This document shows positions 18,341 through 30,821 of a stretch of 32,000 nucleotides of DNA, one piece after another (the first letter of the stretch is position 1; the number at the start of each line of letters is the position of its first letter). The notes under the pieces are model-generated. The model had not been told where the DNA came from, searched no databases, and was given only the letters and a program-made list of their open reading frames with translations. Source of the DNA: an uncultured archaeon (GTDB taxonomy: Archaea > Asgardarchaeota > Jordiarchaeia > Jordiarchaeales > Jordiarchaeaceae); the NCBI GenBank assembly GCA_964510585.1, contig CAZECW010000114.1:1-32000 (forward strand), given 5' to 3'. Both the position numbers and the translations under genes were made by a program.

Positions 18341-20203
18341 TTATGCGCCCCACAGATCTTTTGCTACGTCGGGCAAACCGATAATTATTAAGCGATCCTT
18401 GGTAGGAATCGCGTCCTCGGTCCATCCGCGGAATGCATAGTAGTCCTTCATCATCACATCCATTGGAGGAACCCTACCCTTCTGGCCACCCTCTTTGGTA
18501 GGCGTCAGAAGTCTCGGGGGAAGCCTATTGTCCTTAGCAGACATACCGGCACGGACACAGTAAGCCCATTTAAGGTTAAACAGGCGGTCGGCGGTAATAT
18601 TCAGTGTCAGCTCATCAATATTCCAACCACAACAATTTCTGAAGGCCTCCAAGAAGGTCGGCGTACTCATTGCGGTTCCGCCAAACATGCAAATGACTCC
18701 CGCTGCCAGTACCGCGAAAACGTCTTGCATGACTGCAGTGAGTGTACCCTTTCCGGTGGGGTCAAATCTTCCGGTTCTTTTGGTTATACCTGCGGGTGGT
18801 TGTAGTAGTCCCATATCTGCTATGGAGGGATAACCCGTTACGTGGCATGCACCTCGGGGTGCGGTGGCATACTCTACTCCCATGCTGTAGAATGCTCGGG
18901 GGTCATGCATTGGGGCTTCGAGTCCTTTGACTGTTGTTAGAAATTCGTGTCCTTTACCCAGCTTGTCGGCTGCTGCTTGTGAGCCGTCTGCCAATAGTTG
19001 TCCCGCTTTTCCTTCTCTTCTAACGATTTTTTCTGTGAGTCTTACTACTGCGTCAGCGTTTCCCCATGCTAGTTCTATTCCGTCTATGTCGTTCTTTTTT
19101 ATTATTCCCTTTTCGTAGGCTTCTATGGCCCAGGCTACTGTGGCTCCCGTGGATATAGTGTCCACTCCATAGTCGTTGCAGAGATAGTTAACCCAAGATA
19201 TTGCTTCAAGATTATCTACAAGTAGTAATGAGCCGAATGTTCCGCATGTCTCGTATTCTGGTCCCGGTCCCTCGTATTTGTAGGGTCCTTTTTTGATTTC
19301 CACCCATCTACCGCACCTTATGGGGCAGTTGTAGCAGGCAGTTTGTTTTTTGAGTATAGTTTTGTACATAGCTCCGCCGCCGATTCTGTCCGTCCCATCC
19401 CATTCTCCTAGTTGCCAGTTTTTGATGGGTATGTCTCCGAGGGGCTTCATAGAATCCATGAAGTATTCGGTTCCATATTTTCCCAGTCCTAGTGCGACCA
19501 TTGGGTTGATTTCTATCCAGTGGGTGTACTTTTTAATTTGTTCTTTTACTGCGTCGGGGTTTGCCCACTTTATGTCTCCTGTTCCTTTAATGGCTATGGC
19601 TTTGAAATTTTTGCTTCCCATCACTGCTCCAGCTCCTCCTCTCCCTAAGGCACGGGCTTCATCGTTTATTATGCAGGCTAGTTTAGATTTCTTCTCGCCA
19701 GCAGGTCCTATACACAGAACTCTGGCTTTTTTCTCGCCGATTTCTTCTCTTATCATTTCTTGGGTCTTAAATGTGCCTTGTCCCCATATTTTTGAAGCGT
19801 CTCTCAGCTCGTATTTGTTGTCTTTTACTGAGAGGTATACTGGTTTCTCTGATTTTCCTTCGATGACTATTCCATCGTATCCCGCTCTCTTCATTTCAAA
19901 GGCGAAGTATCCGCCAGAGTTTGCTTCTCCATACCCGTGGGATATGGGAGATTTGAATACTACGGTGAATCTTGAGCTACAGGGCAAGCCTCCCGATAGG
20001 GGTCCGGTGAAGAAGTAGAGTTTGTTTTTTTCGTCGAACTCATCTATTTTTGGAGGAACCTCATCGTAGAGTAGACGCGCCCCAAATCCGCTGCCCCCAA
20101 TCCATGTTTTAGCCCATTGCTCATCTATAGGTACCTCTTTTATTTTTCCCTCTGTTAGGTTCACTCTTAAGTATTTACCCATCCATCCAAACATTTCGCT
20201 CAC
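18341..20203 (-). CDS. aor: Tungsten/molybdenum aldehyde:ferredoxin oxidoreductase
   Basis: LRVNLT, SP-x-S-x-GYGEANSGG, GRGG-x-GAVMGSKN-x-KAI, CYNCPIRC Fe-S motif, EYET, DYGVDTIS, KGLE-x-PMHDPR and D-x-LP-x-R. Confidence 0.95.
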   Translation of the reverse strand: MSEMFGWMGKYLRVNLTEGKIKEVPIDEQWAKTWIGGSGFGARLLYDEVPPKIDEFDEKNKLYFFTGPLSGGLPCSSRFTVVFKSPISHGYGEANSGGYFAFEMKRAGYDGIVIEGKSEKPVYLSVKDNKYELRDASKIWGQGTFKTQEMIREEIGEKKARVLCIGPAGEKKSKLACIINDEARALGRGGAGAVMGSKNFKAIAIKGTGDIKWANPDAVKEQIKKYTHWIEINPMVALGLGKYGTEYFMDSMKPLGDIPIKNWQLGEWDGTDRIGGGAMYKTILKKQTACYNCPIRCGRWVEIKKGPYKYEGPGPEYETCGTFGSLLLVDNLEAISWVNYLCNDYGVDTISTGATVAWAIEAYEKGIIKKNDIDGIELAWGNADAVVRLTEKIVRREGKAGQLLADGSQAAADKLGKGHEFLTTVKGLEAPMHDPRAFYSMGVEYATAPRGACHVTGYPSIADMGLLQPPAGITKRTGRFDPTGKGTLTAVMQDVFAVLAAGVICMFGGTAMSTPTFLEAFRNCCGWNIDELTLNITADRLFNLKWAYCVRAGMSAKDNRLPPRLLTPTKEGGQKGRVPPMDVMMKDYYAFRGWTEDAIPTKDRLIIIGLPDVAKDLWGA

Positions 20204-21525
20204 CTCACTTTTTGTAAGTCTGGGTGTTCGACTCGTTTGAATCCCTCTTTGGGAACGGGGTGTATCTTCTTATAGAATTTCCTCAGAGTGGAGCCTGCGG
20301 TCTGCTGGTACAGGAAGGTTGATAACGCTGACTCCATGGGTTCAACAGTTTTCAGCACGTAATCCTTACTGCCTAAACCTATCTCCTGCCCCACATTACA
20401 CTGTATGTCTTCACTTACACCCATGAAGGAACCTGCAGCACTAAACTTTGGCAAACCCGGAGCTGCTACGAATTTTTGTTCAGCAGCTGACCCCGGCATT
20501 CCCACTGATTTTATAGCCATATCTAAGCAGGCTCTATCTATAGCCACAGGATCTTTGCCAGCAAAGATTCCCATGTTTGGAATAATGGGGCGGTCGGAGT
20601 ATGGGATGCAGTCGCACCAAGGAGTGCTATCTATCGCAAAGTTTATGAATCCCACTTTCCCAGGCTCGAAAGTTTTCATACAGGCGAGTGCCGAATCAGC
20701 TATCGCAACGGAGCTCGCTTCAAGGGTGTCTAGTACTTCCAAGGTTGCGAAAACACCACAATCCAAAGTCATAAATAAGTGAGCTAAACAACCCTTGCAA
20801 AGTTCCCGATTAAATTGAATTGGCCCATCTTCAGGAACAGAAAGTGCACCTTCAGGGCAGCAGGAGATGCATGTCTCCCACTTTGCGCATTTCCTACCAT
20901 CACAGTATTGTGGGAAGTAACTTAACGCCTGCAAACCTAGTACGGGGTGAACTCCTAAGTGTAGATTGTATTTCCCTCTCTTAGATGCACACCCTACACC
21001 AATGTTTTTAATAGATCCTCCAAATACTCCCATCGGGTGCCCTTTAAAGTGGGTTAGTACTATCATGGCGTCTGCACATGCTATTGCAGTTGCGATATAT
21101 TGTTCTTTGAGTATGTATCCCTCTGGTAGGTCTACTCGGACATCGTCTGTTCCTAGGAAGCCGTCTCCTATTATCACTGGGCATCCTACTGTTCCTGAGT
21201 TGAAACCGTTTCTCTCTATGGTCATGTACTCGTCCCATGCGTTTGTTCGGAACACGTAGGGAGCGTAGGGTAGAGTGGTTGTATCAACAACGAAGGGCCT
21301 TCCTCCCAGTTCTTTCACTTTATCTGCAATTGCCCTCACATAGACTGGTCGGAGGTAGGCGGTGTTGTTCCATTCACCCATATGTACTTTTATTGCTACA
21401 TAATCGCCTTTATCTATGCACTCGTTTAGCTTGGCCTGATCGAATAGGTGGAGTGCCTTCGCTACTAGACTGGTTGCTGTGCTTTCACTCCTGTCATCCA
21501 TATAAAAAACTTCAGATTTTGCCAT
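20200..21525 (-). CDS. DUF362 family protein with an inserted 4Fe-4S ferredoxin-like segment
   Basis: AIKVHMGE, Y-x-RP, HFKGH...GG-x-IKN-x-G-x-GC-x-x-K-x-GK, Cys cluster CDGRKC..TCISCCP..C-x-x-C, CDC, and DPVAID-x-AC. GTGA overlap with aor. Confidence 0.85.
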   Translation of the reverse strand: MAKSEVFYMDDRSESTATSLVAKALHLFDQAKLNECIDKGDYVAIKVHMGEWNNTAYLRPVYVRAIADKVKELGGRPFVVDTTTLPYAPYVFRTNAWDEYMTIERNGFNSGTVGCPVIIGDGFLGTDDVRVDLPEGYILKEQYIATAIACADAMIVLTHFKGHPMGVFGGSIKNIGVGCASKRGKYNLHLGVHPVLGLQALSYFPQYCDGRKCAKWETCISCCPEGALSVPEDGPIQFNRELCKGCLAHLFMTLDCGVFATLEVLDTLEASSVAIADSALACMKTFEPGKVGFINFAIDSTPWCDCIPYSDRPIIPNMGIFAGKDPVAIDRACLDMAIKSVGMPGSAAEQKFVAAPGLPKFSAAGSFMGVSEDIQCNVGQEIGLGSKDYVLKTVEPMESALSTFLYQQTAGSTLRKFYKKIHPVPKEGFKRVEHPDLQKVR

Positions 21526-21884: not shown

Positions 21885-22289
21885 ATGGTTAAGTTTCCTA
21901 GCGACGATTGGGCAAAAGCTTATATGAAGGCTTTAAACGAAAATAGGGCTTATGAGGATGCTGCTTTGGACTGGGAAGGTGACTTTCTCTTTGTTATAGA
22001 TCCTGATGACAAGTTAAAGCAGAGGACAGCCATATACCTTGATCTTCATCATGGGAAGTGTAGGGAAGCTTATGTTTTGAAGCCCGGTGAGGAGAAAAAG
22101 ACAAGCTTTGTCATTGAGGCTCCCTACGGTGTTTGGGTTAGAGTGATTAAGAAGGAACTGGATGCAATTCGGGGATTGATGACTGGTAAGTTAAAGTTGA
22201 AGGGAGATATGGCTAAGGTAATGCGGTACACTAAGGCAGCGCAGGAGATGGTTAACACCACAACTGCGATTCAGAGTGAGTTTCTCTAA
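21885..22289 (+). CDS. SCP2 sterol/lipid-binding domain protein
   Basis: KFPS-x-x-W..Y...LN, W-x-G, and GLMTGKLKLKGDM are characteristic. Start reassigned to ATG 21885 (134 aa). Confidence 0.88.
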   Translation: MVKFPSDDWAKAYMKALNENRAYEDAALDWEGDFLFVIDPDDKLKQRTAIYLDLHHGKCREAYVLKPGEEKKTSFVIEAPYGVWVRVIKKELDAIRGLMTGKLKLKGDMAKVMRYTKAAQEMVNTTTAIQSEFL

Positions 22290-22317
22290 ATCTTTTTTTA
22301 TTATTTTTGGGCGGGTG

Positions 22318-23487
22318 ATGGCTTTGTGGTTTTTTATCGGACCCAAAGTGGTTTTTGGAGAAGACGCTTTGGATTATTTGGAGCAGATTCAGGGCAGTAA
22401 GGCGCTTATAGTTACGGATAGAGTTATAGCGGATTTGGGGATTGTTGACAGGGTTAGGGAAAAGTTGAAGACTGCAGGTATAGAGTGTGAGGTTTTTGAT
22501 GAGGTGGAGCCGGATCCTTCAGATACTACGGTGTTTAAAATTTTAGATAGGCTGAAGGATTACGAGCCGGATTGGATAGTGGGCTTGGGTGGCGGCTCCA
22601 GCATGGACGCTGCCAAAACTGCTTGGGTATTGTGGGAGAATCCGGAAAAGAGATTAGAAGACATTAACGCCTTTACTCCAGTGAGCGTTAATCAGAAGGC
22701 GCGGCTCATTACTATTACGACTACTAGTGGTACGGGTTCTGAGGTTACTTGGGCTACGGTGGTTACTGATACAAGGGAGCATAGGAAGATGATATTGATG
22801 GCGAAGGAGATTGTTCCCTTTGCGGCGATTGTTGATCCCAAACTTACACTTAGTATGCCTCCCAGATTGACTGCGGTTACTGGTCTGGATGCTCTGACCC
22901 ATGTGGTGGAGAGTTACATTAATTCTTGGAAGAACGATTTTTCCGATGCCTTTGCTATGAAGGCTATCCAGTTTATTTTTGAGTATCTTCCCAGGGCTTA
23001 CAAGAATGGTGAAGATATGGAGGCCCGCACCAAGATGGCGAACGCAGCAACTATGGCTGGCTTATCCTTTGGAAATGCTTCTGTGGGCATCGCACATGGG
23101 GTGGCTCACTCTGTAGGAGCGGTGTTTGGTTTACCTCACGGCTTAGTTTGCGGCGTTGCTCTACCCTATGTTATTGAGTATAATATTCCCACCTCTGCAA
23201 AGTACTTGGCTGAACTAGCGGAACTTATTGGGATTAGGGAGAGGGATGAGAGGAGGGCGGCGAAGGCTCTGGCTGAAAGGACAAGGAAACTTTTGAGGGA
23301 GATTGAAATTCCCCTGTGTTTGAAGGATTTGGGTATCGGGGAGAAGGAGTTTAGAGAAAATTTTGAACGCTTGGTCAGGCTGACAATTCAGGACGCTTCA
23401 AGCACACTGAATCCCAGAACATTTACCAGAGAGGATATAGAGAAAATCTATGAATGTATTTATTATGGTAGAGAGGTTGATTTCTAA
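22318..23487 (+). CDS. Iron-containing (group III) alcohol dehydrogenase
   Basis: VEPDP, GGGSSMDAAK, TTSGTGSEVT, metal ligands DALTH, H-x-x-AH and HG, and NPR. Start ATG 22318. Confidence 0.95.
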   Translation: MALWFFIGPKVVFGEDALDYLEQIQGSKALIVTDRVIADLGIVDRVREKLKTAGIECEVFDEVEPDPSDTTVFKILDRLKDYEPDWIVGLGGGSSMDAAKTAWVLWENPEKRLEDINAFTPVSVNQKARLITITTTSGTGSEVTWATVVTDTREHRKMILMAKEIVPFAAIVDPKLTLSMPPRLTAVTGLDALTHVVESYINSWKNDFSDAFAMKAIQFIFEYLPRAYKNGEDMEARTKMANAATMAGLSFGNASVGIAHGVAHSVGAVFGLPHGLVCGVALPYVIEYNIPTSAKYLAELAELIGIRERDERRAAKALAERTRKLLREIEIPLCLKDLGIGEKEFRENFERLVRLTIQDASSTLNPRTFTREDIEKIYECIYYGREVDF

Positions 23488-23492
23488 AGAGG

Positions 23493-24380
23493 TTATATGC
23501 AGCGGTATAGTTGAATGAGGGGAGTTACATCGTTTATGGCGGCTTCGAGGCTTATGGAAGCGTATTGGTCTATATGATATTTTCCCCCTTCTTCTTTTAG
23601 TATGCGGTGTTTGACCAGTATTTCTAGGGTTTCTATTAGGCGTTCCTGGGGATTAAAGTTTTTAATTTGGTTCACGGTTTGGTTCTGCAAAATTTGGAGC
23701 GTGGTCACTTCTAGTTTTTTCTGGCGTATTTCTCTTAGTGCGGATACAATGTTTTTGGGGGGCGGTATTCCCACTTTCCAGATGAGTGTTTCTCTCCCCA
23801 GTCCTTGGAGGTTTATTATTTTGTTGTCGTGGAGCTGTTTTATGATTAGTTTGGGGTTGTTAGAAAAGTTTTGTGTGATTTTTATAATTTCTTCCTTATT
23901 TACAAGTGGGGGGGAGTGAAGTATGGCGTCGAATAGTTTTCTGGTTTCTCTCCAGTCTTGGTGTGTTCCCTCAAGGGGGAGGGGACTGTACTTTAGCACG
24001 GAGAGTCTTCCGTCTTTCTCCAGGATGGGGGATAGTTCCTTTTCGACTTTTTGGATGAGTGTTTTGAGGCAACCGTTACCGTTTGGTGTTAGTCCAGTTA
24101 TTTCCGTTACCAGTTCGGGTAGTTCTGCAGGTATGCTGAGCAGTCTTGTGGCTCGAGCGATGATTGATTCTATTCCCCGGGAGTAGAAAACATCTATGAG
24201 TTTCCTTATCTGCTGGGTGGGCAGGATGGGCTTTTTCTCACAGAATTTTTTTATGCACTGGTCAATGAATTTTCTTCGGAGTTCCTGCCCTACCTCCAGT
24301 GATGGGAAAAGTGTGGTGAATGATACCGCATCCCTATTCGCTCGGATAAAGCCCATCGAATCCGAGTGTTTGTTGTTCAA
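23493..24380 (-). CDS. Hypothetical protein (295 aa), third gene of the herA-nurA operon, probably two or three winged-helix-like repeats
   Basis: TTG start 1 nt after the nurA stop. Repeated helix-helix-helix-hairpin segments end in LHDNKIINL..., LVKHRILKEEGGKYHI and possibly ILEKDGRLSV. The fold is a by-eye inference. Confidence 0.75.
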   Translation of the reverse strand: MNNKHSDSMGFIRANRDAVSFTTLFPSLEVGQELRRKFIDQCIKKFCEKKPILPTQQIRKLIDVFYSRGIESIIARATRLLSIPAELPELVTEITGLTPNGNGCLKTLIQKVEKELSPILEKDGRLSVLKYSPLPLEGTHQDWRETRKLFDAILHSPPLVNKEEIIKITQNFSNNPKLIIKQLHDNKIINLQGLGRETLIWKVGIPPPKNIVSALREIRQKKLEVTTLQILQNQTVNQIKNFNPQERLIETLEILVKHRILKEEGGKYHIDQYASISLEAAINDVTPLIQLYRCI

Positions 24381-24381
24381 A

Positions 24382-25596
24382 TCAAACCCCCCTAGGCTTG
24401 CTTACCTTCCAAATCACCTCTAATCCATGTTTTGGTTTAAAAAGGCGATAAAACTTTTTGGGAGAAATTTTATTCTGCCGGGCTATTTTGACAATCTTGG
24501 CTAACAACTCGTCCGCAAGAAAGTTGGGTAAATCTGTCTCTATGAGACTGAACGCATGGGCAAACTCAAGCGACCAAGGTACATTGTTCAGGTTGCTTGC
24601 CTGGTAATAAATTGCGGAACACACATATTCGAGTTGCTTTTCGCTTTCCGCTATATCCTTGTGTAACTCTACTCTGATGGGGAGAGCTTCTGGGTGGGGC
24701 TTTATGTAGAAGAACTTTTGTTGGGAAAGAAATTTGGAGTAACGTTCGCCGAATATTTTCCTATTCGCCAGAGTTGTCCACAGATCACTTGTTTGGGGAA
24801 CTGTGATGTTTAGCTCATCCCGATTACCCGGTCGGAGAAGGGAGTCCAAAAGGTTGGCATCATTTATTCGGCCATAAACTCCACTTAACCAGTAGGAAAC
24901 GTTCTTGTATTTTGAAATTAGATCCATAGAGTGGGGGGACTTTATCACAAAAGCATGGAGTGTCTCTAAGAGCTTTTCAGACAGTATATCTGCCGTGCCC
25001 TGGCTTCCATAGATTTTTTCGAAAATAATTTTGTACTCCTGCTGCACCTCTCGACTCTGGTTACTGAAAATTTCTGATTCCCCCAGACTATAGGGCAGAA
25101 GATCATAGTGAGGAACAAAGGGGCCGTCCAGCAAAACGAGATCGCAACTGTTTCCCTCAAGTGCACGTAGACTAACAAGGCGCTCAAGATACTGTCGGGA
25201 CACTGCTTGAATCCGCTCCACGTCCTCGTCTACCAGGCCCATAACAGGTATACACTTTCCAACAATGTAGGGATTATGTGCCACGGGATTGTTACATTTG
25301 AAGGTTATTCCCGCCGCTGAAACTACAATGAGATCCAAACCCGCCCTTTGGCTTCTATTGGAGGAGCCGTCAACTGCAACTGTAACAGCATCTCGGGCTG
25401 CAGGATTGGTGTTAAGTGTTAGGGTTTCAAGCTGCTTACTCTCACTTAGATTCTCAACTGATTCTATGAGATCCAGATACACGTCGTAGAACCGATATAC
25501 TTCAGATTCGAGTATGTCCAGTGTCTGGTGGAAGATTTCTCCACCACAATTTCCGCCGCTTTTCTCCTCTTCCAAGAATTTTAAAAGGTTGTTCAC
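24382..25596 (-). CDS. nurA: NurA family 5'-3' nuclease (RNase H-like fold)
   Basis: AVDGS, YLER, LLDGP and C-terminal P-x-x-L-x-x-AH match the NurA D/E/D/H catalytic set. GTGA overlap with herA. Confidence 0.85.
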   Translation of the reverse strand: MNNLLKFLEEEKSGGNCGGEIFHQTLDILESEVYRFYDVYLDLIESVENLSESKQLETLTLNTNPAARDAVTVAVDGSSNRSQRAGLDLIVVSAAGITFKCNNPVAHNPYIVGKCIPVMGLVDEDVERIQAVSRQYLERLVSLRALEGNSCDLVLLDGPFVPHYDLLPYSLGESEIFSNQSREVQQEYKIIFEKIYGSQGTADILSEKLLETLHAFVIKSPHSMDLISKYKNVSYWLSGVYGRINDANLLDSLLRPGNRDELNITVPQTSDLWTTLANRKIFGERYSKFLSQQKFFYIKPHPEALPIRVELHKDIAESEKQLEYVCSAIYYQASNLNNVPWSLEFAHAFSLIETDLPNFLADELLAKIVKIARQNKISPKKFYRLFKPKHGLEVIWKVSKPRGV

Positions 25597-27194
25597 ACTC
25601 TATTCCTCTCCGCGAAGTCCCTATGGAGATCAAAGACTGTGTTTCCGCCGTAGCCCAGCTGTATGTCTCCCTTTTCAATGGTTACACAGAGAGGGTCCTT
25701 CAGCGGAGTGGCCATACCAGCTATCAGGAACTCTCCCACCCCCAAACGAGGAAGAATCTTTTGAATCTCTGGAAAATCAGTGTAGTCTTCTATGGCTCTC
25801 ATATCATTTGCTGCTGTTAAACACCCACAGAAGAGAGTGCTGAGGTTTGAGAAGACTGTTTTTGAGATTCGGGAGATTCTTTGATTAATGATGGTTAGGT
25901 TTGCCCCGAACTTGCGGCCCTCCTCAGAGAGGCTTGTTATTTTTCCTGAGGAAAGGTAGGGTTTTCCAACGGTTATCTGACCGTAGGAACCACCCATTTC
26001 AGGAATATAGTTTTTCGCCTCATCAATTATTAGGTGAATCGGGTATCTGTTTCGAAGAATCAAATCAGCAATAGTTCCAATCTTAGCCTGTCTGGCATCC
26101 AATGTGTCACAAGAAGCGTCAATAACCAGTATGTTACCAGCAGCCCTCTTCCAAATTGTGTTGTACTGATCCACGCTGCCCCCTGCAAAAATATCTTTGC
26201 CCAGCAATTTAACCCGACGCCGTATGGCTGCACTCCAGCTGCTTATAGAACCATCCTTTTTATAGAATTCGTCTAGCCACTCATTCACATAGGACATAAA
26301 ACATTCACTATTAAGCTCCGCAGCACCACATGTGAAATCCATCACGAAAATATCCGCCGCCACCTCTACAGCCTTCTTAGCCTGAGAGGGAAGCACATCT
26401 AATCCCAGAGTTTTAACAATATCGTTAGCATCTGTAGGAACCACCGGTAATTCTAAACTAGACATAACCTGGAAATTGCTACACAACTTGTCCAGATTGC
26501 TGGTAGCATATTCACCAGTATGATCCCAAACTATAACATTAACTTTCTTTTTTAGAGAGGATAACCCCACAATATTAGCCGCAGTGGTGACGCTCTTGCC
26601 CATACCTATACGGGCGAATATTCCCACCCCCAAACGCAGTATAGCTGAGGCGTCTAGATCCACTGGGTAATCGGTTTCGCGAATCTTACCCACAGGATAG
26701 TATTCTCCCTCCCTAGCGGGGTCTCGGAATAGGGCTTCGTAATCTTCCTTGTTGGATATGAATATGGGGGAACAGGGTTTGGGAGGGTGAGATAACCTGC
26801 GCACTCCGGGATGGGCAGGAATTCCATATATGCGAAGCTCGCCGAACTTCATATTTTGATCTAGTCTGGGAACCTCACCGTAAAGGCTGGAGAAGTAGTT
26901 CAAAACGTCGGTGGTTGCCCCCCTTGTGGCAGCGAAAAGGTTTGAAACCAGCCCAATAGCTTTAGTTTTTTGGTGGCTGACGGTGAGGAGTTGGCCCTCA
27001 TAAACATAATCCGTGGCGTAGTCGAAGACTGCGAAATCGCACTTTTTAGTGCTGGTTGGACTTGTTACGAAACCTACGGGAGAGGCGCCCTTCAAGATTT
27101 GTTCTTTTGAACGCAAATACTCATATTCTTCGACTTCGGAGCTCATAACGGCTCGCAGCACGGATGTTTCGAGGCCTGTTTCCTCAACCGTCAT
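25593..27194 (-). CDS. herA: HerA/FtsK family ATPase/helicase with an N-terminal HAS-barrel-like region
   Basis: Walker A ARIGMGKS, WDHTGEY, Walker B IIDEA, arginine finger EGRKFG, NQR motif, and L-x-x-GEF-x-x-x-G. Confidence 0.92.
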   Translation of the reverse strand: MTVEETGLETSVLRAVMSSEVEEYEYLRSKEQILKGASPVGFVTSPTSTKKCDFAVFDYATDYVYEGQLLTVSHQKTKAIGLVSNLFAATRGATTDVLNYFSSLYGEVPRLDQNMKFGELRIYGIPAHPGVRRLSHPPKPCSPIFISNKEDYEALFRDPAREGEYYPVGKIRETDYPVDLDASAILRLGVGIFARIGMGKSVTTAANIVGLSSLKKKVNVIVWDHTGEYATSNLDKLCSNFQVMSSLELPVVPTDANDIVKTLGLDVLPSQAKKAVEVAADIFVMDFTCGAAELNSECFMSYVNEWLDEFYKKDGSISSWSAAIRRRVKLLGKDIFAGGSVDQYNTIWKRAAGNILVIDASCDTLDARQAKIGTIADLILRNRYPIHLIIDEAKNYIPEMGGSYGQITVGKPYLSSGKITSLSEEGRKFGANLTIINQRISRISKTVFSNLSTLFCGCLTAANDMRAIEDYTDFPEIQKILPRLGVGEFLIAGMATPLKDPLCVTIEKGDIQLGYGGNTVFDLHRDFAERNRV

Positions 27195-27240
27195 ACAAAT
27201 TACCCCGTAGGGCTTTAGCTTGGTTCATTTTATAGGTGAA

Positions 27241-27260
27241 CCACTATTTAAATTTAGTGG
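27241..27260 (-). promoter_or_regulatory. Putative herA TATA box (TTTAAATA, 27252-27245) embedded in the inverted repeat CCACTA-N8-TAGTGG
   Basis: Consensus archaeal TATA on the minus strand about 50 nt upstream of the herA ATG, flanked by 6-bp inverted arms. Confidence 0.55.
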
Positions 27261-27711
27261 AAAACACAAAAAATTTTTGAATTAATGGAAGGATAACCTA
27301 TCATAATATATAAATAAAATGCGTTTTTTGTGATAGGACTTCTTATTTACTGAAAAAACTTTCTTGAAATTGTGAAAGTGGCAGGAGCAAAAAGAAGTAA
27401 GGTATGATACTTTGGGGAAAATTTGGATACTTTTTGAACAATTTTTACTGGTCTGGGGGCGAATCTGGAGGGCAAGCTTGTTCCTATCATTATTTATAAA
27501 TAATTTCGGATAGTTGTGATAGTAGCTATGTTGTGCTTATTGTACTTTTAAAGGGATATTTCTGAAAAAGACCATAAAATATATATACAGGATATATGAT
27601 ATTTCATACAAAAACCACCACTTCCACTCGTTTAGAAATAAATAAAATAATATTGACAGGTTTATTCGTCTTACCTACGGGAAAATCGGTGATTATTTCG
27701 AGGCGTCCTAG

Positions 27712-28008
27712 ATGATAGATGAATTACTAGGTTTGGGTAGATCAAAGACACGTTTGGATATTGTAAACCTCATGTTGGATGAGGGTAGACCCTTATCAGC
27801 TTCAGAGATAGCGGAAAAGCTGGGTATCAGCCTTAACGCTGCAAATATTGCTATCCACTATTTGAATAAGGCGCGTCTTTTGAATAAGGTTGAACGTGGC
27901 ATGTATGAGGTCAATGTTTATGCCTTCTGTAAGGCGTTTCTAACTTTTCTTTTAGGTTCTAAGGTTAGCGGTTATGCTGGTAAGAGTCTTGAAGAATACA
28001 CAAAGTGA
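27712..28008 (+). CDS. Small winged-helix (ArsR/MarR/TrmB-like) DNA-binding protein 1
   Basis: RPLSASEIAEKLGIS HTH, wing ending RGMYEVN, C-terminal hydrophobic helix. Confidence 0.85.
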   Translation: MIDELLGLGRSKTRLDIVNLMLDEGRPLSASEIAEKLGISLNAANIAIHYLNKARLLNKVERGMYEVNVYAFCKAFLTFLLGSKVSGYAGKSLEEYTK

Positions 28009-28028
28009 GTGGGAGGTGAAAAGCCAGG

Positions 28029-28307
28029 TTGAGTGGTCTATTAGACGATACGGTGCTGCGGCTCCGAGGTGGCAGTCTAAAGGTTCTATCGCTTCTATCC
28101 ATTTCGCACCGTCCCTTAAGGCCGGTTGAGATAGCGGATATTCTGGGCATGCAGCTCAACGATGTGGGAAAGTATCTTGTTAGGTTGGCTAGTAAAGGGC
28201 TGGTTTCGAAGGTTAACTTGAATGGCAATTCCACTGGTTACACTTCAAACCTAGATATTCTGGAACTTGTGCTGGACCATGAGCGTAGATTAAGGAATTT
28301 GGAGTAG
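28029..28307 (+). CDS. Small winged-helix protein 2
   Basis: GGAGGTGA RBS, TTG start, RPLRPVEIADILGM, RLASKGLV and GYTSN. Confidence 0.85.
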   Translation: MSGLLDDTVLRLRGGSLKVLSLLSISHRPLRPVEIADILGMQLNDVGKYLVRLASKGLVSKVNLNGNSTGYTSNLDILELVLDHERRLRNLE

Positions 28308-28334
28308 GGCCTGTTTAGGAATGGGGGCTGCTTT

Positions 28335-28634
28335 TTGAGTTCCGAGGATAGCGATAATCTTTTTGACAAGTTCGACAAGCTTATGAGGATGAGGGATAAT
28401 GCAAACAAGGTGCTCATCTACATTCTAACTAGCCCTAAGCCAGTGACTCCTAAGGAGCTTATGGATAACTTGGGTTTGACTGAGAATAGTGTTTGGAAGA
28501 CTGTTAGGCGATTGGAGGCAGATGGTTTTCTTAGATTGGTTGGTAGGGGGGAGTATGAGCCTAACTTGGGTTTGTTAACTGCGCTTCTTCTGTTTAAAGT
28601 GCAGGAGTTAATTAAAATGTTAGAAAAGAGATGA
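28335..28634 (+). CDS. Small winged-helix protein 3
   Basis: SPKPVTPKELMDNLG, RLEADGFL and RGEYEPN; close paralog of protein 4. Confidence 0.87.
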   Translation: MSSEDSDNLFDKFDKLMRMRDNANKVLIYILTSPKPVTPKELMDNLGLTENSVWKTVRRLEADGFLRLVGRGEYEPNLGLLTALLLFKVQELIKMLEKR

Positions 28635-28638
28635 TTGG

Positions 28639-28950
28639 ATGAGTGATGATGAAGAGCAGATTAGTTCCAAGGAGGCGTTTAATAAATTATTGAGGCTGGG
28701 CGAGTCCTCCATTCAGATAATTGAGTACATACTTTGCTCACCTAAACCCGTGACTCCTAAAGAACTGGTGGAAAAGTTGGGAATTACGGAAGGCACGGCT
28801 TGGAATGCGTTAAGCAGATTGCAGAAGATTGGTTTCCTTGTTACCAAAAGTAGGGGGGAGTACGAGGCAAATATAGGATTTATTTTAGCCATGGTTCTTT
28901 TCACACTAAGCGATATGGCTGAAAAATTGAGAGAAGTAAAGAGGAGGTGA
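28639..28950 (+). CDS. Small winged-helix protein 4
   Basis: SPKPVTPKELVEKLG, RLQKIGFL and RGEYEAN. Confidence 0.87.
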   Translation: MSDDEEQISSKEAFNKLLRLGESSIQIIEYILCSPKPVTPKELVEKLGITEGTAWNALSRLQKIGFLVTKSRGEYEANIGFILAMVLFTLSDMAEKLREVKRR

Positions 28951-28973
28951 ATACAAGGAGGAGTAACCGGAGA

Positions 28974-29165
28974 ATGGAAAAGTTTGCAGGCTATTAAAAT
29001 TTTCCGGGGAAGACATTTTCCACATCGAAACCATATTTTCCAGAATTGAGAGATAGACTTGGCGGCTCCTACAAAACATGGAAAGATTTGGGTTCGTTGG
29101 TCTTGTGGTTTAAATATGAGCCCAATCAAATAATCAGGTGTAGGAAGGATGTGTCCCAAATATAA
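28974..29165 (+). pseudogene. Probable decayed sixth winged-helix paralog
   Basis: AGGAGGAG RBS, ATG 28974, in-frame TAA at 28995, then the same frame reads SKPYFPELRDRLGGSYKTWKDLGSL..KYEPN. This echoes KPVTPKEL...LG...W...L and YEPN of proteins 3 and 4. Confidence 0.45.
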
Positions 29166-29301
29166 GATTCTTGGTGGCTAAAGCTCTGGAAATTGTTCTA
29201 AACGCTGACAAAGGGGATAAATGGTAAGAAGGAGGAACCAAAATGAATTAATTAAAATTTATGATTTAAAATTTAATTCAATGTGTTTGGAGGTTTAACA
29301 A

Positions 29302-29628
29302 ATGGAAGATGAAGATGTGTTTGAGGAAGGAGAGGCATTTGGGGGAGATTATAAGACTCTAATAAAGAAGTTAATTGATCCTAGAGCCAGAACTATGTAT
29401 TCCATCTTGGAACTTCTGCTTCAAAATGTGAAGAGTGAACCGGTTTCTGCCAGTAATATAAAGGATAAGCTGGGGATTTCTAAGCAGGCGGCTACCAATG
29501 CTGCGCGTAGGCTTGAGGAAACAGGATTCATAACCCGCACGCCTGAGGGATATATGGTAAATCAGGGATTCATAATAAATTTGTTAATCCAACTTGTTGG
29601 GGAAATCTTGAAAAAACTGGAGCTCTAA
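29302..29628 (+). CDS. Small winged-helix protein 5
   Basis: GGAGGT RBS, EPVSASNIKDKLGIS, RLEETGFI and GYMVN, with an acidic N-terminus. Confidence 0.87.
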   Translation: MEDEDVFEEGEAFGGDYKTLIKKLIDPRARTMYSILELLLQNVKSEPVSASNIKDKLGISKQAATNAARRLEETGFITRTPEGYMVNQGFIINLLIQLVGEILKKLEL

Positions 29629-29711
29629 ATCGAAAATTGGTAACTCAAAGAGCGTCCGCGAAGAAAAAGTAGAATAATCTGGAAGGTACTTGACAGAATC
29701 TTTGGAACTTT

Positions 29712-30821
29712 TTATATGGATATTTTCTCCAAGCCCTCAACTATGCTCTGGGTTCCCTTGCTTATTGCTACTTTTTCTAGGTCTGAACGTGTTACTATTT
29801 TACCCGTTTTTGCCGATAGGTAACATAGAAGAGCTACCTCTACAGCTTTTTTTGCCTCTTCGGGGGAGAAGGCTGGCTCCCTGTCGTTGAGTATGCATTC
29901 GGCGAAATGGGCATCCTCATTTCTAAATGAGATAATGTAATACATTGGAAAAGGTTCATGCTCCACATCAGGGCTGAACCACTGGTATCTGTGTTCGCCA
30001 GCTTCTTTGCTAGTCGAGAATATCTGCACCGGTTTTTTCCAGGAGTGATCCTCTAGAATAGTTCCCTCTGTTCCGTAAAATTCCAGTCTGTTGTTTGGAG
30101 GGCTAAACACTGTGTCGCTTACAACAACACTACCAACGCATCCGTTTTCAAATTTTAGAAGCATCATAGCGTTGTCCTCAGCCTTATTCTGCAGTTTTAT
30201 AATCTGCTTAGCTAGCCAGCAGTAAGCTGAATGCACGTCTCCTAACATCCAATTCAGTATGGCGAATTTGTGCACTGCAGCGTCCATTAACACGCCGCCG
30301 CCTGCTTTTTTTGGTGAGCCCTTCCAGTGTTCAGGCTTTGCAAGATCCGGGGTTTCATCCACACCCTCATAACCCCTTACGAGTATGGGGGTTCCTATCA
30401 GCCCAGTTTCCAGTGTTTTTTTGATGAGTTGATGTGCGGGTAGGAAGCGGTGGTTTTCTGCTATCATAAGTTTCACTCCAGCCTTTCTTGCCGCCTTTAT
30501 CATTTTGTCGCACTCTTCAAGAGTTGGGGCCATAGGTTTCTCACAGAGAATGTGTTTACCAGCCTCTGCCGCTGCGACGGTTAGCTCGGCGTGTAGGTGG
30601 TGGGGGAGGGCTATGAGAACTGCATCAATATCATCATTTTTCATAATGTCTTGATAATTCCTGGTTACTGTTAGATTGTAAATATCGGCCAATTTCTTAG
30701 CGTTTTCATAGTTCACATCAAAGGCAGATACTAGCTTAATCTTGTCCACATATTTACATGCCGAAGCGTGAAAATGAGCCGCTGTCCCGCATCCCAAAAC
30801 ACCAATTTTAACTTGTCTCAT
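29712..30821 (-). CDS. Gfo/Idh/MocA family NAD(P)-dependent oxidoreductase
   Basis: GVLGCG, PHHLH, GKHILCEKPMA, AENHRF, GGGVLMD-x-x-VH and YGTEG. Confidence 0.92.
   Translation of the reverse strand: MRQVKIGVLGCGTAAHFHASACKYVDKIKLVSAFDVNYENAKKLADIYNLTVTRNYQDIMKNDDIDAVLIALPHHLHAELTVAAAEAGKHILCEKPMAPTLEECDKMIKAARKAGVKLMIAENHRFLPAHQLIKKTLETGLIGTPILVRGYEGVDETPDLAKPEHWKGSPKKAGGGVLMDAAVHKFAILNWMLGDVHSAYCWLAKQIIKLQNKAEDNAMMLLKFENGCVGSVVVSDTVFSPPNNRLEFYGTEGTILEDHSWKKPVQIFSTSKEAGEHRYQWFSPDVEHEPFPMYYIISFRNEDAHFAECILNDREPAFSPEEAKKAVEVALLCYLSAKTGKIVTRSDLEKVAISKGTQSIVEGLEKISI

Follow-up and report, generated by a model that had tools for sequence, protein, structure and literature searches.

A candidate DNA-maintenance module of HerA, NurA and winged-helix proteins conserved in one class of Asgard archaea

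The ATPase HerA and the nuclease NurA are known from archaeal DNA-end resection, where their genes lie together with mre11 and rad50 (Sulfolobus, Pyrococcus and Thermococcus herA–mre11–rad50–nurA). Two-gene herA–nurA pairs stand alone in Deinococcus and Thermus, and HerA-type ATPases are joined to other effector enzymes in the Sir2–HerA and DUF4297–HerA systems. A 2026 review counts four NurA homologs in the Asgard archaeon Freyarchaeum, all of them uncharacterised and with roles unassigned (PMC13748450). Here we describe a further arrangement, found in a 32,000-nucleotide stretch of DNA (hereafter the window; positions 1 to 32,000 of contig CAZECW010000114.1) from an uncultured Asgard archaeon whose assembly, GCA_964510585.1, comprises 3.78 Mb in 217 contigs. 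At positions 23493-29628, herA, nurA and a 295-aa gene that we call X face away from a row of small winged helix-turn-helix (wHTH) genes across a common control region. The nine gene positions appear to form a vertically inherited module specific to the class Jordarchaeia/Freyarchaeia. Our preferred account, which we consider probable, is that this conserved module has a core role in DNA maintenance and is controlled through palindromes in the gap between its two operons.

An earlier analysis of the letters made without database searches (the sequence-only reading) had noted three tightly packed minus-strand genes, herA, nurA and an orphan, and an AT-rich region of 517 bp between divergent operons. 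Coordinates and Pfam matches bear out the first and the gap coordinates the second. The features of the module are as follows.

23493-24380, minus strand: X, the 295-aa gene with a TTG start; lineage-specific, without a family above cut-off
24382-25596, minus strand: nurA, a NurA-family nuclease of 404 aa
25593-27194, minus strand: herA, a divergent FtsK/HerA-superfamily ATPase of 533 aa
27195-27711, no strand: divergent control region of 517 bp, common to both operons
27297-27337, herA side: palindrome 1, CCTATCA-N27-TGATAGG around the TATA-like ATATATAAAT
27483-27522, wHTH side: palindrome 2, CCTATCA-N27-TGATAG around TTTATAAATA
27712-28008, plus strand: wHTH-1, 98 aa, with HTH_24 and HTH_5 matches; orthologous group 1
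28029-28307, plus strand: wHTH-2, 92 aa, with an HTH_IclR match; orthologous group 2 (support 100/99)
28335-28634, plus strand: wHTH-3, 99 aa, with HTH_11 and HTH_24 matches; orthologous group 3, sister to group 4
28639-28950, plus strand: wHTH-4, 103 aa, with an HTH_11 match
28951-29301, plus strand: wHTH-5 pseudogene, with tblastn remnants and stops
29302-29628, plus strand: wHTH-6, 108 aa, with MarR and MarR_2 matches; orthologous group 6

The herA stop and the nurA start overlap by 4 nt, and the TTG start of X lies 1 nt from the nurA stop. On the other side of the gap, wHTH-1 to wHTH-4 are spaced 4-27 nt apart. The 1-kb stretch that holds the gap has a GC content of 37%.

Both enzymes of the module look active. 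HerA matches Pfam DUF87 (PF01935; 49.4 bits against a cut-off of 23.2, 8e-13), and its Walker A motif (G197-M-G-K-S201, fitting G197-x-G-K-S201), its Walker B motif (D391-E392) and an NQRxSRISK block are invariant in eight clade sequences. With these catalytic motifs intact, the protein is nevertheless divergent: the NCBIfam equivalogs for HerA, CedD and anti-phage HerA score 31-46 bits against cut-offs of 600-970. The Pfam HAS-barrel model finds no match at its N terminus, although it does match two paralogs in the same genome (on C137 and C130); the N-terminal 165 residues are conserved. NurA matches PF09376 over model positions 3-238 of 254 (52.4 bits against a cut-off of 21, 6.6e-14). Residues D76 (AVDGS), E138 (RQYLE), D157 (LLDGP) and H347 (EFAH) are invariant in the clade, and the acidic ones line up with the paralogs' DG, E and DG motifs; we take the four to be the catalytic residues of the solved NurA structures. 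NurA thus appears to keep the acidic and histidine active-site set. Its Atlas model superimposes on a NurA cluster with TM-scores of 0.90/0.94, and phmmer found no match to it in the PDB.

This pair is one of several in the genome, which holds four NurA-domain loci and eight DUF87 loci. A canonical set lies on C118 (L014:5334-12297), where nurA is followed, after a gap of about 1 kb, by herA and by genes for an Mre11-type phosphoesterase and a Rad50-type SMC ATPase. C137 carries a stand-alone nurA–herA pair, adjoined by neither X nor a wHTH array, and C195 an enlarged herA–nurA pair. Because of these loci, the module pair is not the sole herA and nurA of the genome, and the sequence-only reading was right to propose a second, specialised HerA–NurA machine. 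The HerA–NurA paralogs are mutually 23-30% identical, and the closest relative of the module pair in the genome is the C137 pair, at 25% identity. We note two further observations on these loci. In the class's other family, which holds a nurA...rad50 cluster of its own, the best matches to the HerA and Rad50 of C118 are only 25-30% identical; it seems that the canonical repair locus either was replaced or evolves far faster than the module. On C130 (L016:5269-8248), a 486-aa gene without a Pfam match comes after a herA that does match the HAS-barrel model, and a HEPN gene lies near.

The third gene of the operon is predicted to encode three tandem winged helices. An AlphaFold2 model of X built with 11 homologs (pLDDT 84.6, pTM 0.82) places three helix-helix-helix-hairpin units after an N-terminal helical region, a confident model that supports the earlier suggestion that the orphan is a multi-wHTH protein. 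Foldseek returned weak matches to tandem winged-helix proteins, for example SelB, RPC62, ScpB and TrmB-like proteins. When a profile of X was run against 1.84 billion representative proteins, it recovered three clusters, all from this lineage; the names that homologs carry assign the organism to Freyarchaeota/Jordarchaeia. Three candidate relatives were set aside: Pfam DUF5457 (20 bits against a cut-off of 25.2), matches in other Asgard families that we judged not credible (E 6e-4 to 1e-2, 15-20 bits, over short stretches), and a 295-aa gene 5.8 kb downstream in the locus L031 (BLASTP E 1.9). A complex prediction for NurA and X scored 0.00, a result that counts neither for nor against binding. 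The spacing between nurA and X, elsewhere 1-3 nt, is 318 nt in the complete Freyarchaeum genome (L017:9683-10001).

X is present in all 11 genomes of the class Jordarchaeia/Freyarchaeia, and the 389 other Asgard genomes gave no match to it that we consider credible. HerA of the module type was found in 10 of the 11 and, at E<=1e-20, nowhere else in the phylum; the single class genome without a HerA match is 83% complete, and its X lies 583 nt from a contig end. In a species-representative genome collection, the clade consists of Jordarchaeia/Freyarchaeota records and one labelled Thermoproteota, and overall it comprises one archaeal class and two stray metagenomic relatives. Within the genus, the gene order, the six small genes and the flanks are common to the complete Freyarchaeum genome and three further assemblies. 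In a second family of the class, a herA–nurA–X operon stands opposite five wHTH genes across 300 bp, set among other neighbours (AIR-synthase-like, an unknown 707-aa gene, Pyr_redox_2 and FdhD). A contig labelled Heimdallarchaeota carries a HerA that is 61% identical, with six small genes opposite herA–nurA, and a contig labelled Korarchaeota carries a herA–nurA pair with identities of 39% and 31% before being cut upstream. The linkage of the wHTH array to herA–nurA, which the sequence-only reading had left to be looked for in relatives, therefore holds in another family with other flanks and in the 61%-identical lineage. The patchy distribution expected of a defence system did not emerge, given the presence of X and HerA across the class and the synteny throughout the genus.

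To calibrate rates, we compared identities within the genus and between families with those of RadA.

Module HerA: 90% within the genus, 70-72% between families
Module NurA: 79% within the genus, 53-56% between families
X: 70% within the genus, 34-37% between families
RadA (calibrator): 88% within the genus, 78-83% between families
Canonical HerA: 85% within the genus, 29-30% between families (best match)

By this measure, module HerA is conserved nearly as well as RadA.

The small genes were also described in the sequence-only reading, as an expanding array of five to six. Five are intact (92-108 aa), and the sixth candidate is a decayed member, wHTH-5. The array is not expanding. A maximum-likelihood tree was built with 34 array proteins, drawn from six genomes; the sequences fall into six groups that follow gene position, and 6 label changes are needed where the minimum is 5 and shuffled labels require 22.7 on average. 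Because tree groups follow position, the duplications predate the split of both families and of the Heimdall-labelled lineage. Judged by this tree, the array is old and fixed, with its gene order kept; in this genome it is shrinking. Remnants of wHTH-5 were recovered by tblastn at 28984-29088 and 29144-29212 in different frames, and every frame contains stops over 28951-29301. The gene is intact (107-108 aa) in three relatives (L017, L018 and L020) and decayed also in two sister species (L034 and L037). Its region shares 78-79% nucleotide identity with the sister species, against 91-98% for neighbouring genes. An independent metagenome run is letter-identical over 29004-29301, with no contig covering 28920-29003. 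In the other-family genome G004, no sixth gene, and hence no counterpart of wHTH-6, follows the five array genes.

Each array group has its own conserved recognition helix. A profile of the family gives 78-129 bits for the five array genes of this genome and 40 bits for the next match; by this score, the family is private to the module within this genome. The AlphaFold2 model of wHTH-4 (pLDDT 92) shows an N-terminal helix, a wHTH, a wing and a long C-terminal helix, and its best full-length PDB matches are the Lrs14-like AbfR2, ST1889 and ArsR/CadC. Array proteins score 16.5-27.4 bits with the NCBIfam Lrs14 model (NF040939), below its cut-off of 90. They are Lrs14-like in shape, going by the predicted fold of wHTH-4, but are not Lrs14 members. 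We rejected an assignment of the family to TFE, since the top PDB match (1q1h, 4.8e-10) reflects generic winged-helix similarity. A distant single-copy relative of 117-155 aa (50-65 bits) occurs in three other Asgard families, in 77 of their 89 genomes taken together, and in the loci L041-L044 (for example G335:C1:416075-416392) it lies between genes for a pyridoxal-phosphate-dependent decarboxylase and a TraB/PrgY-family protein and not beside nurA; the family may have descended from a stand-alone gene that looked like this one. The annotation of the complete relative gives wHTH-2 a length of 52 aa, its C-terminal half (L017:5747-5905). This is probably a matter of the start-codon call and not a truncation, because the profile match spans about 90 codons.

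What links the two operons is the gap between them. It contains two direct copies of a 40-nt element, 186 nt apart and 78% identical, each of which consists of the palindrome arms CCTATCA-N27-TGATAGG with a TATA-like box at the centre. Both palindromes are nearly invariant in four genus-level genomes, in which conserved blocks flank a variable gap centre; palindrome 1 is fully invariant there, and palindrome 2 occurs in every relative. In the other family, a palindrome whose spacing is likewise 27 nt lies some 35 nt upstream of the herA start, and a degenerate second copy lies towards the array. Across the 3.78-Mb genome the strict palindrome pattern occurs once, in this gap, and a relaxed pattern has one other match, which is dissimilar. 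The gaps of both families also have in common the motifs AATGGAAG, GTGGCAGGA and TTTCTTGAAAT and share 18 8-mers, where shuffles gave an expectation of 4.85 and a maximum of 10. From these patterns we infer that the two palindromes are a candidate operator private to the module and serving both sides of the gap. An Rfam scan of 23000-30000 assigned the gap no family, and an AgvB match inside herA was sub-threshold (28.6 bits against 56) and was taken as chance. The consensus fold of the wHTH-side leader, at -4.5 kcal/mol and with almost no covariation, leaves a structured RNA unsupported, and among the small open reading frames listed for the gap (20-47 aa) no conserved micro-gene was identified.

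Taken together, these observations suggest how the module might work. HerA and NurA would act as in characterised archaea, as an ATP-driven DNA translocase and nuclease that process DNA ends, with X as a DNA-binding or loading accessory. Each 40-nt element would be a promoter with its TATA box set between the sites of a winged-helix dimer. One or more of the wHTH proteins, as such a dimer, would bind the palindrome arms and so occlude TBP and TFB at both divergent promoters, such that both operons would be switched together, whether repressed or released. The cellular role may be repair, recombination or chromosome processing. Class-wide presence, synteny and RadA-like conservation of HerA argue for core DNA maintenance rather than a mobile immune system. 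Gene content, motifs, conservation, orthology and the cis-elements are observed; complex formation, DNA binding, repression and the cellular role are what we infer.

Several points weigh against this account. The interactions among X, HerA, NurA and the wHTH proteins, and the binding of any of them to the palindromes, are postulated. Six regulators exceed the need of simple autoregulation for one operon. In this genus the herA ATG is 102 nt away from palindrome 1, and a TATA-like box closer to the ATG (around 27244-27255) could be the true herA promoter, so the promoter assignment is firmer for the second family. In the lineage with 61%-identical HerA, X is not beside nurA, and for this reason X may be dispensable. 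The C-terminal half of HerA has its best PDB and PADLOC matches among anti-phage HerA proteins, through generic ATPase motifs only, and universal conservation taken alone is compatible with an immune role.

Defence against viruses or plasmids is the alternative to which these last points lead, with HerA as an assembly and sensing platform in the manner of Sir2–HerA or DUF4297–HerA, NurA as the effector that degrades DNA, and X together with the wHTH proteins sensing foreign DNA or regulating the response to it. We consider this unlikely, and the defence interpretation of the sequence-only reading is disfavoured by the distribution, synteny and conservation described above. The pair does stand apart from mre11 and rad50, the genome does hold several herA–nurA paralogs, and the C-terminal half of HerA does match the PADLOC anti-phage HerA models (7.5e-23) and PDB HerA chains of ATPase–effector complexes. 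PADLOC, however, yielded generic HerA ATPase matches only, with no specific model for NurA, X or the wHTH genes, and scans of PHROGs and viral contigs gave no specific relatives. A DefenseFinder/PADLOC survey of the complete relative reports CRISPR-Cas, restriction–modification, Hachiman and DISARM and no integrated mobile element, and its main text does not name HerA or NurA (PMC11529989). The module is near-universal (X in 11 of 11 and HerA in 10 of 11 class genomes), and its HerA changes almost as slowly as RadA. A mobile island of defence genes is disfavoured by this housekeeping-like conservation, by synteny among metabolic genes within the genus and by the absence of relatives in viruses.

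The number of regulators raises another alternative, in which the six wHTH proteins would be stoichiometric DNA-binding or targeting subunits that form hetero-oligomers with X and load HerA–NurA at particular sites or structures. Six distinct conserved paralogs, each with its own recognition helix, would suit such a role; all six groups are old and kept in order, their co-oriented genes with gaps of 4-27 nt suggest co-expression, and X is itself a multi-winged-helix protein by prediction. A fixed hetero-oligomer is unlikely, though, because this subclade has lost member 5 and no member 6 follows the five array genes of G004. The fold is that of ordinary dimeric Lrs14/ArsR regulators, and the sole conserved private DNA sites found are in the promoter region of the module itself. 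We give this alternative less credence than defence. In its fullest form, a site-directed DNA-processing machine in which up to six wHTH proteins and X load a dedicated HerA–NurA at chromosomal sites or structures, it is more speculative still; if true, it would be new to archaea, a core function invented in Jordarchaeia, and could serve programmed DNA processing, segregation or replication-linked resection. Finally, the adjacency could be no more than inherited synteny, with an unrelated cluster of wHTH regulators that happens to adjoin a paralogous operon for repair. Archaeal genomes abound in small wHTH genes, and the distant relative in another Asgard family sits beside the decarboxylase and TraB-family genes. 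This we think very improbable, given that the pairing persists across families with wholly different flanks and in the 61%-identical HerA lineage, that the same palindrome precedes both operons and that no further member of the wHTH family occurs in the genome.

The sequence-only reading had also placed convergent metabolic genes at the edges of the block, and this was confirmed.

22276-23487, plus strand: Fe-alcohol dehydrogenase, converging on X
29712-30821, minus strand: GFO/IDH/MocA oxidoreductase, converging on wHTH-6

Further out, pairs of DUF362 and aldehyde:ferredoxin oxidoreductase genes flank the module in the genus (18341-21525 of the window; L020:12863-19765), and in one relative these pairs are tandemly duplicated. 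Contigs from a sediment metatranscriptome library, 95-99% alike, cover 23798-24663, 26385-26570 and 27700-28396 and so touch X and nurA, herA, and wHTH-1 to wHTH-3; one starts 12 nt before the wHTH-1 ATG. These data are contigs, which cannot prove transcription or transcript starts or ends, and they offer a weak hint that the module is expressed in a close relative. The organism itself is present at hot-spring sites.

The palindromes, the predicted three winged helices of X, the six-group orthology of the array, the wHTH-5 pseudogene and the rate calibration against RadA are new results of this analysis, and we found no paper in the literature describing a HerA–NurA–X/wHTH module. NurA and HerA of Asgard archaea are wholly uncharacterised, and the module offers a concrete case of their sub-functionalisation in a defined, conserved and compact form (about 6 kb) that can be cloned and has an obvious candidate operator. 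If it is a core maintenance machine, the archaeal end-resection motor has been re-used with new DNA-binding partners among the relatives of the eukaryotic ancestor; should its role be immune, it would stand out among defence systems for being retained universally. In both cases, the palindromes, unique in the genome and set around TATA-like boxes, provide a rare testable archaeal promoter–operator pair.

Among described systems, Lrs14/ArsR-like regulators such as AbfR2 and ST1889 resemble the array proteins in size and fold, and differ from them in that the module has six fixed paralogs in one row tied to one locus. Sir2–HerA and DUF4297–HerA likewise combine a HerA-type ATPase with an effector enzyme, and the similarity of the ATPases is partial and C-terminal. 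The effector here is NurA, PADLOC has no match for the partner genes, and the module is universal and vertically inherited in its class and lies outside defence islands. Stand-alone HerA–NurA pairs, as in Deinococcus, Thermus and on C137, share the two-gene herA–nurA arrangement without mre11 or rad50; unlike the C137 pair, the module has X and the wHTH array. With the archaeal end-resection complex it shares adjacent genes with overlapping stop and start codons and intact ATPase and nuclease motifs. It departs from that operon in lacking mre11 and rad50, which adjoin herA on C118, in a HerA that scores 31-46 bits with the NCBIfam HerA equivalogs against cut-offs of 800-970, and in the addition of X, six wHTH genes and private palindromes. 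We conclude that the module is a conserved, uncharacterised form of a DNA-processing machine already known, and that it is probably no mobile island of defence genes.

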